Below, piece after piece: positions 4,818-11,494 of a stretch of DNA of 13,650 bases. The notes under the pieces were generated by a model. It had not been told where the DNA came from. It saw only the letters and a list, made by a program, of their open reading frames with translations, and did not search any database. Position 1 is the stretch's first letter. Each line of letters opens with the position of its first letter. The DNA is from a virus. The stretch is from UHGV virus genome UHGV-0359675; one strand, given 5' to 3'. The position numbers were made by a program, and so were the translations under genes.

Positions 4818-6194
4818 TCATACGTCCGCCCCTTGTGCATATCGTCTGCCACGCGCAGCAGGCGCATTTGATGCTGTGCAAATCTGTCTGGCTTCATCCT
4901 GGTCACATGCAACAAAGTGTCCGTTGCAGAACCGCTGGTAAACCGTACCAAGTGAGCCAAAACGGTTTTTCGTCACAATGATTTCAGCAAATGGCGCGGC
5001 GCTACTGTTCTCGTCATATACCGCTTCCCGATAGAGCATGATGATTGAGTCTGCGTCCTGTTCAATGCTTCCTGAATCACGCAAATCTGCGTTTGTCGGG
5101 CGTTTGTTTGGTCGCTTCTCAACATCGCGTGAAAGCTGACTTAGGGAGATAACAGGCGTTTTCAGGTCTTTCGCCATCGCCTTAAGGCTTCCTGAGATGT
5201 GGGCAATTGCGAGGTCGTTGCGATCTGCTTTCGGCTTCTCAATCAGGCCAAGATAATCCGCCATGATGAGTGACAGGTTTGGATTTTCCTGTTTGTGTCG
5301 TTCTGCGATTGAGCGTATTTCTTCGACCGATAACCGCGAGGCATCGACTACCCATACATCCAAATCTGCAAGCTGACTCATGCCGTTAGCAACACGCGCC
5401 CAGCCTTCGTCATCCATCGATGCAGGATTTCGCAGTACGCTAACCGACATCCTCCCGGCGTTGGCAATGCTTCGCTCTGCAATCTGCAATGCGCTCATTT
5501 CCATTGAGAAAATCAATACCCCGCGCCGGACGTCAGAACCAGGAATAACGCGGCTTGCAACGCCTTCGGCAATCTTCAGCGCCAGCTCGGTTTTCCCCAT
5601 ACCAGGACGAGCAGCGATTATCACCAGGTCTTCTGCGTTCATCCCTCCGGTGATGGCATCAAGTTCTTCGATTCCGGTCTTCAGGGTATCGGACTCTTCT
5701 CCGTTCCTCAGACGCCTGTCAAGCGTGTCAGTGTAGTCAGTAATGATTTCCCCTAACCGTACAGGTTTAACCTCGTCACGGGGCTTTCTGATGGCTGAAA
5801 GACGCTTTACAAGCTCATCCATCGCCTGACTCGATGCGTCGATGGTTCCGCTCTGAATTGGTTCACGCATTTCATCCATGATTTCCAGCACCAGACGGCG
5901 GTGATAGTTATCCGCGACCATTCCGGCATATCCCTTCAGGTTTGCGGCACTCGGGCAGTTTTTGCTGGTCATCAGGATTGCGGTGAAATGCTCCTCTCCG
6001 CACGCCTCGGCAACCATCAGCGCGTCGATTAGGTTTCTGTTTCTCGCCTGCTTGCGAATAACCTCGAAGGCTTTCCGGTAGAGCGGAATTGAAAACGCTT
6101 CCGGCTCCAGCGTTGCAAGAACGTCACTGGCGGTTGGAGTTAATCCACCAATCAGCAGGCCACCGATAACGCTCGCTTCGATATCCTGTCTCAT
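4818..6194 (-). CDS. Replicative DNA helicase, DnaB family (phage P-function analogue, P22 gp12-like)
   Basis: 458 aa with Walker [13 protein letters not shown] and DnaB-like C-terminal RecA-fold motifs. ATGA overlap with the upstream O-like gene. Confidence 0.88.
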
Positions 6195-7138
6195 GCAATC
6201 CCCCTGTCTGCAAACTTCCCTTCCCGAACTCCCGTTAACGAGTCTTCTCTCAGCAGGTAATCAAAATCAGCCGTCCAGCCCGTGTCGTTGTCTCCGAAGT
6301 AAAACGGCTTGGCCTGATGCACAAACGCCCTGACATACGCTCTGAAACCGTCCACGTTTGGCGTTTTCAGTTGCGGGATGATTTTCTTCAGGCGGCGTTT
6401 TCGTTTCTCGTTGACCGCAACAGCGTGTGGCAGTCTGTCACCGACTTCGGTGTTGTAGGCGTTCAGGAAGGATTCGTAGTCGATTCGTTCTGCCTTGCGA
6501 CGTTCAGGTTTAACCTGCCCATCGCCTCCCCCATTGGGGGGTAGGGGGGTATTATTTATATTCTTGTTAATACCTTCTTGTTCATGATGTGCGGTTGTTT
6601 GTGCGGCTTCATGTGCGCTTTCATGTGCGGCATGTACGCTGAAAGCCGCGCTATTGCTGGCTTCATCATGTGCGGCATCATGTGCGGTTGTTTGTGCGGC
6701 TTCATGTGCGGGTAAATTGTCCATTTTTTGAGCATATTCATGGTAATTTGTGATGGTTATCACACGGCCTTTTTGCTTCTCTCCATCAATGGAGATCATC
6801 CCCTCTTTCACAAAAACCTGAAGCATCCGCTCAACCTGATCACGGCTTGCTGGCTTGCCATGTCTGTCGCATAACTGAAGACCTAAATCAGCTGCTGTCA
6901 CAACCAGTTGACCGGGTTGCAGATGCCATTCATGACCTTTGAAATTCGCTTTGTATGGCTTTCTGGCGGCATTCAGGAGAAGGTTATCCCACAGGGTGCG
7001 AAGATAAACATCTTTCGCCCATGACTGTTTCAGAATGCTCCGGTACAACGGAATGTAACCAGTTTTCTGGTTCTCCATCCTGTTGCTCCTGCGCTCGTGT
7101 GCGGCGCTGAAATCGTAGATTTTTGCTGTATTGCTCAT
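6191..7138 (-). CDS. Replication initiator, O-like, with a His/Ala-rich repeat linker
   Basis: 315 aa. Position between cII and the helicase, and a central low-complexity linker ([16 protein letters not shown]...) encoded by the DNA repeat array, match the organisation of lambda O with its internal ori. Confidence 0.75.
6551..6711. repeat. Candidate origin of replication: 12-bp-periodic direct repeats (core TGTGCGG) in two clusters plus an adjacent AT-rich block
   Basis: Core TGTGCGG at 6588, 6600, 6624 and at 6669, 6681, 6693, 6705, with variants at 6612 and 6633. Each cluster has exact 12-bp phasing. AT-rich TATTATTTATATTCTTGTTAATA at 6551-6575 lies on the gene-downstream side, as in lambda ori. 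Confidence 0.5.
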
Positions 7139-7140
7139 AA

Positions 7141-7413
7141 CTACCTGCCTTGACGAAAGACCTTAAGAACATCGTTAAACTGACTTACGGATATGTCTTC
7201 TTTGAGAAGCTTTTCCAGAAATGCGTTTGGAATGAACGTATATCCCTCCTCTTTTGGTAGAGACGGGAGCAACGCCCTCGCCTCAGCCTTCAGAAGCTCA
7301 GTTCTGGCAACTTTCACAAAAGAGATTTGAGTTCTTTCATCAATGGAACGAAGGAAGCGCAAACGCTTAGCTTCTTTGTGTGTATCAGGTGGATTAAAGC
7401 CTTTGTTTCGCAT
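7141..7413 (-). CDS. Hypothetical 90-aa protein between cII and the O-like gene
   Basis: Start at the internal Met (MRNKGFNPPDTHKEAKRLRF...) has a GAGGT Shine-Dalgarno 7 nt upstream. The longer 181-aa track ORF overlaps cII out of frame and is rejected. No family recognised. Confidence 0.45.
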   Translation of the reverse strand: MRNKGFNPPDTHKEAKRLRFLRSIDERTQISFVKVARTELLKAEARALLPSLPKEEGYTFIPNAFLEKLLKEDISVSQFNDVLKVFRQGR

Positions 7414-7424
7414 ATAATTACCTC

Positions 7425-7490
7425 GTTGGATGTTGTTAAAATTCCATTTGTATTTGATCAGAACGCTCGGTTGCCGCCGGGCGTTTTTTA
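7425..7490 (+). ncRNA. oop: oop-like antisense RNA with toop terminator, overlapping the cII 3' end
   Basis: Perfect -10 TATAAT at 7413-7418 on the + strand. Terminator CGCTCGG-ttgccg-CCGGGCG then TTTTTTATT at 7464-7492, inside the cII 3' end and antisense to it. This is the lambda oop/toop arrangement; the sequence matches my recollection of lambda toop. Confidence 0.5.
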
Positions 7491-7729
7491 TTGGTGAGAA
7501 TCGAAGCAACTTGTCGTGCCAATCGAGCCATGTCGTCGTCGACAACACCCCATTCAAGAACAGCAAGCAGCATTGAGAACTTTGGAATCCAGTCCCTCTT
7601 CCACCTGCTGATCTGCGACTTATCAACGCCCACAGCTTCCGCTGTCTTCTCAGTTCCAAGCATTGCGATTTTGTTAAGCAACGCACTCTCGATTCTTAGA
7701 GCCTCGTTGCGTTTGTTTGCACGAACCAT
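7436..7729 (-). CDS. cII: Transcriptional activator CII (lambda-type)
   Basis: From the internal Met: MVRANKRNEALRIESALLNKIAMLGTEKTAEAVGVDKSQISRWKRDWIPKFSMLLAVLEWGVVDDDMARLARQVA.ILTNKKRPAATERS.QIQMEF, matching recalled lambda CII (97 aa). Shine-Dalgarno AAGGA is upstream. Confidence 0.9.
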   Translation of the reverse strand: MVRANKRNEALRIESALLNKIAMLGTEKTAEAVGVDKSQISRWKRDWIPKFSMLLAVLEWGVVDDDMARLARQVASILTNKKRPAATERSDQIQMEF

Positions 7730-7745
7730 ATGTAAGTATTTCCTT
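7707..7745 (+). promoter_or_regulatory. pRE-like promoter with CII-binding direct repeat TTGC-N6-TTGC
   Basis: TTGC (7707-7710), GTTTGT, TTGC (7717-7720) on the + strand, straddling the cII start and oriented toward cro/c2. This is the classic lambda pRE -35 architecture. Confidence 0.6.
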
Positions 7746-7785
7746 AACAAATAAGAAGTTATGCGCATCAACTTATGCGCGTTGT

Positions 7786-7831
7786 ATTCCCGCATTTCGG
7801 CGGGAATGAGGACCATGACTGTTAAAGAGCA
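7786..7831 (-). promoter_or_regulatory. nutR: boxA (TGCTCTTTAACA) plus boxB hairpin
   Basis: Minus sense: boxA TGCTCTTTAACA (7831..7820), a near-consensus rrn-type boxA. boxB ATTCCCGC-cgaaat-GCGGGAAT (7807..7786). Lies between the cro stop and cII start. The same boxB core recurs upstream of N. Confidence 0.6.
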
Positions 7832-10524: not shown

Positions 10525-10875
10525 ATGAGTGAAGTAACAGATTTAGTTGTTATTGAAAAAGCAAATGCAATGACTGTATTTCAGTCTGCCGACCAGATTG
10601 AAGAAATTCTCCAAAAGGTTGAACGTGAAGTTATGTCATTTGTGCCTGATATCACAACGGCAAAGGGCAGAAAGGAGATCGCTTCTCTGGCGTATAAAGT
10701 TGCGCAGACGAAAACATATCTCGATGGTCTTGGCAAAGACCTTGTTGCTGAACTGAAGGAAATTCCAAAGCTAATTGATGCCAACCGCAAGACAGTGCGC
10801 GATCGCCTTGATGAACTGAAAGCCAAGGCGCGCCAGCCTCTTACTGATTATGAGGAAGAATCAGGCGCGGATTAA
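10525..10875 (+). CDS. Hypothetical 116-aa protein (predicted helical/coiled-coil)
   Basis: Start chosen at the internal Met with Shine-Dalgarno GGAGG (MSEVTDLVVIEKANAMTVF...). The upstream in-frame extension of the track ORF (from 10429) runs through the terminator and is rejected. Confidence 0.55.
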   Translation: MSEVTDLVVIEKANAMTVFQSADQIEEILQKVEREVMSFVPDITTAKGRKEIASLAYKVAQTKTYLDGLGKDLVAELKEIPKLIDANRKTVRDRLDELKAKARQPLTDYEEESGAD

Positions 10876-11494
10876 AGCCGAAGAAGAAGCTAAGGCAGCA
10901 GCTGAAGCTCTCGCAAAGCAAATTGAGTCTGACCATGAAATAGCGATTTTGATGGATCGCGAATTTGACCGCCAAAGAGAAGAGGCAAGACTCAAAGCGG
11001 AGCAGGAAAAGCGAGAGCATGAAGAACGATTAAAAAGAGAAGCTGAAGAGAAAGCCAGAGCAGAAGCCGAAGCAAAGGCAAAAGCCGAAATTGAAGCAGC
11101 AGCAAGGCGAGAAGCAGAAGCTAAGGCCGCAGCGGAACGTGCAGAGCGTGAACGCATTGAAGCCGAGCAACGAGCACAGCGCGAAGCAAAAGAGGCAGCA
11201 GAACGAGCTGAAAGAGAAAAGCAGGCAGCAATTGAAGCAGAACGCAGAAAAGCACAGGAGGAGGCTGAACGAATCCGTCGCGAGGCTGAAGCAAAAGAGC
11301 AAGCCAGAATAGCAGAAGAAAAAAGAATCAAGGACGAAGAAGAGCGTAGAGCAAAGGATAAAGCTCACCGGAAAGAAGTAAATAACAAAATACTTGCTGA
11401 CCTTATCAAGGTTGGCGCATCAGAAGATGTTGCTAAAAATATCATAACAGCCATCGTAAAAGGCGAAGTATTCGCAACAAAAATAACCTACTAA
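10850..11494 (+). CDS. Hypothetical 214-aa protein with a long E/R/K/A-rich predicted single alpha-helix or coiled-coil and a short C-terminal domain
   Basis: Overlaps the preceding ORF by 26 nt in the +1 frame with no obvious Shine-Dalgarno. About 150 residues of EAEAKAKAE / REAEAKAAAERAERE-type repeats. The start is uncertain; this may be a frameshifted continuation of the upstream ORF. Confidence 0.5.
   Translation: MRKNQARIKAEEEAKAAAEALAKQIESDHEIAILMDREFDRQREEARLKAEQEKREHEERLKREAEEKARAEAEAKAKAEIEAAARREAEAKAAAERAERERIEAEQRAQREAKEAAERAEREKQAAIEAERRKAQEEAERIRREAEAKEQARIAEEKRIKDEEERRAKDKAHRKEVNNKILADLIKVGASEDVAKNIITAIVKGEVFATKITY

Follow-up and report, generated by a model that had tools for sequence, protein, structure and literature searches.

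Putative 12-bp-phased iterons inside the O-like initiator gene of CUS-3-type lambdoid phages

In phage lambda, the replication origin lies inside the gene of the initiator O, at the boundary between its N- and C-terminal domains (PMC3349717, PMC7466680). Four annotated iterons (39034-39118, the ori bases being 39034-39160) are followed by a 38-bp A-rich AT stretch (PMC3349717). In the lambda sequence, an inverted repeat encoding SSENSGESSD and then the P-binding C-terminal domain are found 3' of this stretch. Several O or gene 18 types carry their own internal repeats, which are taken as origins (PMC8022706). Besides lambda, this is the case of P22, with four repeats of ~20 bp and an origin presumed to be inside gene 18, and of phage L, whose gene 18 contains six imprecise 11-bp repeats (TGTCCAACGGA) proposed as the origin from the sequence only (PMC8022706). 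The Stx phages 933W and P27 harbour six lambda-type iterons, the extra ones lengthening the linker peptide of O (PMC7466680).

Direct repeats are also found in iteron plasmids, whose general scheme associates a winged-helix Rep protein with direct repeats adjoining an AT-rich unwinding element (PMC4980987). A literature search yielded only the general principle, together with the examples of lambda, P22, L and the Stx phages, and no description of the repeat family of CUS-3-type phages presented here.

Replication module of the window

The window (the whole 13,650-nt stretch of viral DNA analysed here) carries an O-like gene that is 99.9% identical, over that gene, to the O gene of the P22-like coliphage CUS-3. 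The following features were recognized in its replication module:

4818-6194, minus strand: DnaB-type replicative helicase gene (458 aa; Pfam), which overlaps the stop codon of O
6191-7138, minus strand: O-like replication initiator gene (315 aa; ORF list and translation), which houses all elements of the putative origin
6194-6520, minus strand: O-like C-terminal domain, the partner-binding half, of the HK97/ST104/P22 gp18-like type (~89% DNA identity to ST104 gene 18 and HK97-type O)
6528-6549, no strand assigned: C/G-run element with a short inverted repeat C5-ATT-G5, encoding PLPPNGGG and belonging to the C-terminal (HK97/ST104-type) module
6551-6586, minus strand: AT-rich block of 36 bp, A-rich on the coding strand (CATGAACAAGAAGGTATTAACAAGAATATAAATAAT), candidate DNA-unwinding element
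6587-6631, minus strand: putative iteron cluster 2, four 12-bp units with cores at 6623-6630, 6611-6618 (variant GCGCACAT), 6599-6606 and 6587-6594
6632-6664, minus strand: central spacer of 33 bp between the clusters (consensus in relatives CCAGTAATGGCGCGG)
6665-6712, minus strand: putative iteron cluster 1, four 12-bp units with 8-bp cores at 6704-6711, 6692-6699, 6680-6687 and 6668-6675 (CCGCACAT/A on the minus strand)
6713-7078, minus strand: region coding for the predicted winged-helix N-terminal domain, aa 21-142 (AlphaFold, Foldseek and class covariation), in which Ala82 and Asp100 are the residues that tell the core classes apart

The O-like protein matches the Pfam family Phage_rep_O (PF04492) over aa 20-132 (E=2.3e-15, 57.3 bits for a cut-off of 28.7). 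The product of the gene at 4818-6194 matches DnaB_C (9.6e-78) and the DnaB N-terminal domain (3.9e-13), and is annotated in CUS-3 as a replicative DNA helicase. Upstream of the O-like gene lie cro, a cII-like gene and a divergent cI repressor gene. The order of an initiator followed by a DnaB-type helicase is that of gene 18 and gene 12 of P22, and is also found in ST104 and with HK97-type O genes, whereas the partner of the initiator in lambda is P. ST104 gene 18 and HK97-type O share with the window, at ~89% DNA identity, the C-terminal half, the AT-rich end and the C/G-run element, but the N-terminal domain and the repeats of the window are unrelated to those of P22, ST104 or HK97-type phages. 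The ST104 and HK97-type arrays encode LAKTANKTLAKSAN-like repeats. The similarity of the N-terminal domain to lambda O is marginal (BLASTP E=0.004 over 65 aa).

The phages HF4s, Gally and JEP4, as well as a large series of Stx2a-converting phages, share 97-99% identity with the window over the O gene, and the 234-bp region of the putative origin was found in 281 of 5,426 complete E. coli genomes. No origin annotation was found at the array of the O gene in the record of CUS-3 or in the other records inspected.

A 181-aa ORF with a GTG start (7141-7686, minus strand) is located between cII and O and overlaps the cII-like ORF 7436-7816. It has no Pfam match, is unannotated in CUS-3 and is probably not a gene. 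Elsewhere in the window, an imperfect tandem array of the hexamer AGAAGC (11038-11121, ~14 copies, 63% matches) lies in a 214-aa ORF (10850-11494) that corresponds to a hypothetical protein of CUS-3. An Rfam scan of the window detected no RNA family.

The repeat array and the elements beside it

The original prediction described the motif TGTGCGG as recurring at a 12-bp phasing in two clusters of four, about 80 bp apart. Both clusters were recovered, with seven exact copies, all on the plus strand (starting at 6588, 6600, 6624, 6669, 6681, 6693 and 6705), and an eighth copy in phase that shows one mismatch (TGTGCGC, 6612-6618). The spacing is exactly 12 bp within each cluster and 45 bp between clusters, and the measured distance from start to start of the clusters is 81 bp. 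TRF delineates period-12 arrays at 6600-6631 and 6664-6711. Over the whole window, nine TGTGCGG are observed for 1.8 expected, a count reached in none of 200 shuffles. The ninth copy, located near the 5' end of O (7098-7104, codons SAAHE), was considered as an autoregulatory site; it is missing from all other loci and is probably due to chance. No further repeat cluster fit to be an origin was found in the replication module.

On the coding strand, the core reads CCGCACAT, and the whole array lies within the O-like ORF, between the Phage_rep_O domain (aa 20-132, the domain-coding region extending to aa 142) and the C-terminal half. Each unit has the form NCC GCA CAT NNN and encodes a tetrapeptide repeat, for example AAHE, AAQT or TAHD. 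Its core is asymmetric and covers 7-8 bp, (C/G)CGCACA(T/a) on the coding strand. No dyad symmetry was found within the units; every copy of the core is carried by the same strand, with no inverted partner.

Conservation was analysed in 54 loci whose products are homologous to the N-terminal domain (66-87% aa identity), taken from one-genome-per-species collections across Enterobacterales, the genera including Xenorhabdus, Brenneria, Sodalis, Yersinia, Citrobacter, Enterobacter, Atlantibacter, Pantoea, Proteus and Morganella. One Klebsiella phage and one Yersinia phage were added to this sample, of which 51 loci were usable. A first protein database search, which returned mostly 'partial' entries, served only to seed the alignments. 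All slots set by the layout were counted in the unit statistics, so that matches were not selected. The array is present in all 51 loci and its layout is rigid, with 3+3 or 4+4 units and a step between clusters that is always 45 bp. The cores belong to two classes, class A, (C/G)CGCACA(T/a), in the window and 22 other loci, and class B, (C/G)CG(C/A)GCAT, in 28 loci, the class being uniform across all copies of any one locus.

Position 3 of the unit falls on third codon positions, four-fold degenerate for the most part; it is a C in all 146 class A slots and in 204 of the 206 class B slots. In the same way, position 6, the third base of an Ala codon (GCN), is an A in 145 of the 146 class A slots and a G in 203 of the 206 class B slots. 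Position 1, at which changes alter the amino acid, retains about 0.3 bits in class A and class B alike, and positions 10-12, between the cores, 0.1-0.9 bits in both classes. The N-terminal domain encoded by these genes follows the usual pattern, third codon positions being the least conserved (1.49, 1.68 and 0.85 bits for codon positions 1, 2 and 3), and GCA and GCG account there for only ~21% and ~16% of the Ala codons, respectively. Since the synonymous sites of the cores are invariant while amino-acid-changing sites between cores vary, selection acts on the DNA and not on the linker peptide. Furthermore, units of the same locus differ by 0.12 per site in the cores versus 0.60 per site between them, so that a homogenisation of whole repeats cannot explain the conservation of the cores. 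The comparison of loci thus shows purifying selection on the cores at the DNA level.

According to one alternative, the repeats would be coding only: a His/Ala-rich low-complexity linker, flexible or metal-binding (AAHE/TAHD), would have arisen by slippage, the periodicity of the DNA being a by-product. It accommodates the in-frame units, their period of four codons and the 'AH' dipeptide seen in all homologues. However, it leaves unexplained why the synonymous third positions of the cores are invariant when the residue-changing first position is nearly random, and why GCA and GCG are switched together throughout the copies of a locus, contrary to the background codon usage. Moreover, the sequence between cores diverges within loci, and the peptide itself changes, His being replaced by Gln, Leu, Asn or Arg and, in class B, Ala by Glu, always through single-base changes. 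The coding-only reading is therefore very unlikely. The original prediction would have been refuted by homologues keeping the linker and lacking any repeat at the DNA level; the opposite was found, as homologues keep the DNA repeat though the peptide changes.

The two clusters have the same number of units (3+3 or 4+4) in the 51 genome loci (L005-L058) and in 61 of 62 distinct viral sequences (L340-L419), and sister loci differ as 3+3 versus 4+4. The viral contig L358 carries 4+3 units, which makes this symmetry a rule that is not absolute. Concerted evolution between clusters was considered as its cause; the similarity of the two clusters outside the cores is 0.48 within loci versus 0.43 between loci, a weak effect, and this explanation was set aside.

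Some homologues are frameshifted or truncated within the array (proteins P0022 and P0040, loci L009 and L054, with PRITPRITASISPR-type readings). In this region, Xenorhabdus ehlersii has a stop codon 3' of cluster 1 and a Symbiopectobacterium MAG carries frameshifts; many database entries of homologues are 'partial' proteins ending within the repeats. This suggests decaying prophages and/or assembly breaks at the repeats.

In both core classes, all three codon positions of the central spacer are kept, with a mean information of 1.25, 1.06 and 1.03 bits at positions 1, 2 and 3, to be compared with the values given above for the N-terminal domain. It matches neither core class and does not covary with the class. 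This conservation suggests that the spacer may be a site for another factor.

On the gene-downstream side of the array, where an AT-rich block had been predicted, the GC content falls to 0.17 (6550-6579), which is indeed the minimum of the gene. An AT-rich run follows the array in all 51 loci, and CATGAACAA is invariant in all of them, synonymous sites included; the 39 nt located 3' of the array are on average 77% AT, and A alone makes up 54% of them on the coding strand. The position and the polarity of the block are those of the 38-bp AT-rich region of lambda (PMC3349717).

The C/G-run element, which the original prediction had placed at 6527-6548, exists but sits one base to the right: CCCCC (6528-6532), ATT, GGGGGG (6536-6541), TA and GGGGGG (6544-6549). 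It is common to ST104/HK97-type O genes that have other iteron types, and shows G4 in 10 of 80 relatives. C5-N-G5-like motifs also occur 3' of the AT-rich block in two other types of right arm (L049 and L054). As single-stranded DNA, the inverted repeat of the element can form a modest hairpin of -8.3 kcal/mol on the plus strand (z=-2.1); for the minus strand, z is -1.4. This repeat may be the counterpart of the one that lambda carries on the right of its AT-rich region, which is a resemblance and not a test.

The two runs of six G had also been regarded as candidate slippage sites, and could then act as phase-variation switches truncating or restoring O. Two homopolymer runs of 6 nt do lie in the ORF, and two of 119 close relatives carry G6/G5; however, these two variants could just as likely be homopolymer sequencing errors or dead prophages, and the other 117 are G6/G6. 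The polymorphism of a contingency locus is thus lacking among these relatives. Moreover, the HK97/ST104-type version of the element (C5..C5..G5) differs by substitutions and not by indels, the frame and the PLPPNGGG peptide being kept. A slippage switch, for the G6/C6 runs, is hardly credible on these grounds, and this part of the original prediction is not supported.

Core classes and the N-terminal domain of the initiator

The class of the cores goes with two residues of the initiator. At aa 100 (numbering of the window protein), all 23 class A loci have Asp and all 28 class B loci have His; at aa 82, the split between classes is also perfect, with Ala or Pro in class A and Ser or Thr in class B. 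An AlphaFold model of the N-terminal domain of O (mean pLDDT 80.6) predicts a winged-helix fold with, in model numbering (window aa minus 20), a helix at 62-68, a recognition helix at 79-91 and a beta-wing at 95-109. In this model, the recognition helix has residue 100 in second place, and the helix before it starts with residue 82. A Foldseek search with the domain retrieved only winged-helix DNA binders (the CodY DNA-binding domain, RosR, CRP and the MarR family), with weak scores (E about 0.01). A sequence search of the PDB with the whole O-like protein returned nothing at E<=1.

In a neighbour-joining tree, classes A and B largely form two clades. A Sodalis locus of class A, L017, is nevertheless placed inside the class B clade, its closest relative (86.7%) being the class B locus L035, and it encodes Ala82 and Asp100. 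Thus, aa 82 and aa 100 track the class of the DNA and not the overall phylogeny. The same association holds in independent viral contigs. A first scan, based on the alignment of the N-terminal domain, yielded only copies that were 98-99% identical; the independent class B set comes from a second scan led by a class B sequence. All 61 distinct class B sequences encode Ser or Thr82 and His100 and have the G in 7-8 of 8 units, and all 78 class A sequences encode Ala82 and Asp100, with no exception in either class. Among database proteins, P0013, known as a protein sequence alone, is the sole one that combines Asp100 with an 'AEH' unit.

This covariation is the strongest available indication that the N-terminal domain of O reads the cores, although it rests on few independent events, essentially two clades and L017. 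A bolder proposal, made tentatively and with somewhat more doubt than belief, is that the initiators and origins of this family form two orthogonal specificities. These would be set by a one-base difference in the core (CGCACAT versus CG(C/A)GCAT), synonymous in the overlapping frame, and matched by an Asp-to-His change at the start of the recognition helix together with a change from Ala to Ser or Thr at aa 82. The same proposal holds that the bipartite and mostly symmetric array, with its conserved spacer, may recruit a further (host) factor. As the sites are located inside a gene, every copy of the core had to change in concert by silent substitutions. If real, the two specificities would represent a minimal and readable switch in a recognition code, allowing related prophages to coexist without cross-talk between their origins, and the recruitment of a further factor would imply an architecture of the initiation complex unlike that of the lambda O-some.

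Just upstream of Met21 of O, the sequence AGGAGCAAC(A/C)GG(A/G)TG (7076-7090, minus strand) is kept at the DNA level in the 51 loci, GTG replacing ATG as the start in four of them. It looks like a Shine-Dalgarno sequence and the start codon of a shorter O isoform beginning with MENQK, the position at which the start of O is annotated in the Klebsiella phage record. Since the 20 codons upstream of Met21 resemble the N-terminus of lambda O (MTNTAKILNF), both starts, the full-length one and Met21, may be in use.

Origin assignment and place among lambdoid modules

The array and the N-terminal domain are inherited together and are joined to different C-terminal domains (three or more module types) and partner genes. 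Directly after the array, most of the 51 loci have a right arm of the lambda type, with an SSENSxESSD segment and a C-terminus like that of lambda O. The right arm of the window is instead of the HK97/ST104 (P22 gp18-like) type, the DNA similarity with these phages beginning in or after the AT-rich block. The similarity of the Klebsiella and Yersinia phages to the module of the window covers only the array and the N-terminal domain, and their partner gene encodes a lambda-P-type or another loader/replication protein in place of the DnaB-type helicase of the window. The C-terminal module of the window recurs in identical form with at least three unrelated N-terminal/iteron types, each encoding its own repeated peptide. 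Two other N-terminal types associated with it were seen in loci L180-L259 (e.g., L180 and L188), with the linker peptides LAKTANKTLAKSAN and KTFTNSVKQTFTKSVK; the linkers encoding them are presumably the own iteron arrays of these types.

The locus thus presents what characterizes an origin inside the O gene of a lambdoid phage, that is a Phage_rep_O initiator, an array between its two domains and an AT-rich region on the C-terminal side. Along the direction of transcription, the repeats, the A-rich AT block and the inverted repeat follow each other as in ori-lambda, which also lies at the domain boundary within the gene of a Phage_rep_O family initiator (PMC3349717, PMC7466680). The co-inheritance of the array with the N-terminal domain and the exceptionless prediction of the class by aa 82 and aa 100 indicate that the repeats are cognate to this domain. 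However, the units differ from lambda-type iterons, which are palindromic 18-mers (18-19 bp) with an internal dyad, in 4-6 evenly spaced copies (four in lambda). Those of the CUS-3 type are phased at 12 bp, with an asymmetric core of 7-8 bp, and occur in 6-8 copies distributed in two clusters around a conserved 33-bp spacer. Because of its one-strand cores, its 12-bp period and its bipartite layout, the array is not a set of lambda-type iterons, though it occupies the same position.

Other known systems show partial likenesses. As in phage L, the repeats are short, direct and more numerous than those of lambda, they lie in the initiator gene of a P22-like phage and the origin is deduced from sequence; the motif, the period and the type of initiator sequence differ, and a bipartite layout has not been described for phage L. 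In Stx phages, the number of iterons varies too, and the CUS-3-type module itself is found in many Stx2a-converting phages, but the iterons of 933W and P27 are lambda-type palindromes bound by dimers of a lambda-like O. With iteron plasmids, the array shares repeats in the same orientation without dyad, a winged-helix initiator and an adjacent AT-rich region; plasmid iterons are, however, of 17-22 bp and located outside the rep gene, and the likeness does not imply a demonstrated homology.

Its conservation, the selection on its DNA, the covariation of the cores with the helix-turn-helix, its modularity, its lambda-equivalent position and these precedents argue that the array consists of iterons cognate to O. 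It is thus highly probable that it supplies the iterons of a replication origin, that of a CUS-3-type lambdoid module, with an adjacent AT-rich unwinding element; the C-terminal domain would recruit the helicase. The original prediction of iterons and an AT-rich unwinding region in the linker of an O-like gene, arranged as in lambda with shorter and more numerous units, thereby receives strong comparative support.

The cores could also be selected binding sites that are not the origin proper, serving O autoregulation, a copy control of the handcuffing type, another phage or host protein, or a recombination hotspot for module exchange. The junction at which the N- and C-terminal modules meet in the mosaic does adjoin the array, lying within the AT-rich block or after it, and the central spacer, conserved as DNA without matching either class, may bind a second factor. 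However, the covariation with the helix-turn-helix of O points to O itself, and the array, the AT-rich block and the right arm are collinear with the functional ori-lambda. In addition, the conserved AT-rich block would have no role if the sites were purely for control, and the replication module offers no other candidate repeat cluster. A function of this kind in place of an origin appears improbable.

If the array is part of the origin, O molecules would bind its eight cores, all in the same orientation, through their winged helix, Asp100 and Ala82 helping to read the central CA step. The eight occupied sites (4 + 4) would form an O-some-like nucleoprotein complex stressing the adjacent 36-bp AT-rich block (6551-6586) until it opens, and the C-terminal domain of O would deliver the phage DnaB-type helicase (4818-6194). 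As the array has to remain in frame, its period of 12 bp is the multiple of three nearest to a helical turn; successive proteins would be offset by ~50 degrees around the helix, an arrangement compatible with a wrapping of the DNA. Since the units lack dyad symmetry and lie on one strand, the binding geometry of O must differ from the one dimer per iteron of lambda and, by analogy, would be more like that of plasmid iterons.

This array would therefore represent an iteron family not characterised before, within a kind of origin that is well known. The two-domain organisation with the origin in the gene is classical, and its generality has already been noted (PMC8022706), so that the textbook picture of lambdoid replication is left unchanged. 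The array shows a protein-coding linker and a set of binding sites co-evolving in one stretch of DNA. The switch between A and G in the core, paired with that between Asp and His in the recognition helix, provides a directly testable specificity swap for a winged-helix initiator. The module is also frequent in complete E. coli genomes and constitutes the replication region of many Stx2a-converting phages of O157:H7. In Stx phages, phage replication drives toxin production (PMC7466680). The value of the finding comes mainly from this natural switch of one base and one residue and from the frequency of the module in the prophages of pathogenic E. coli.
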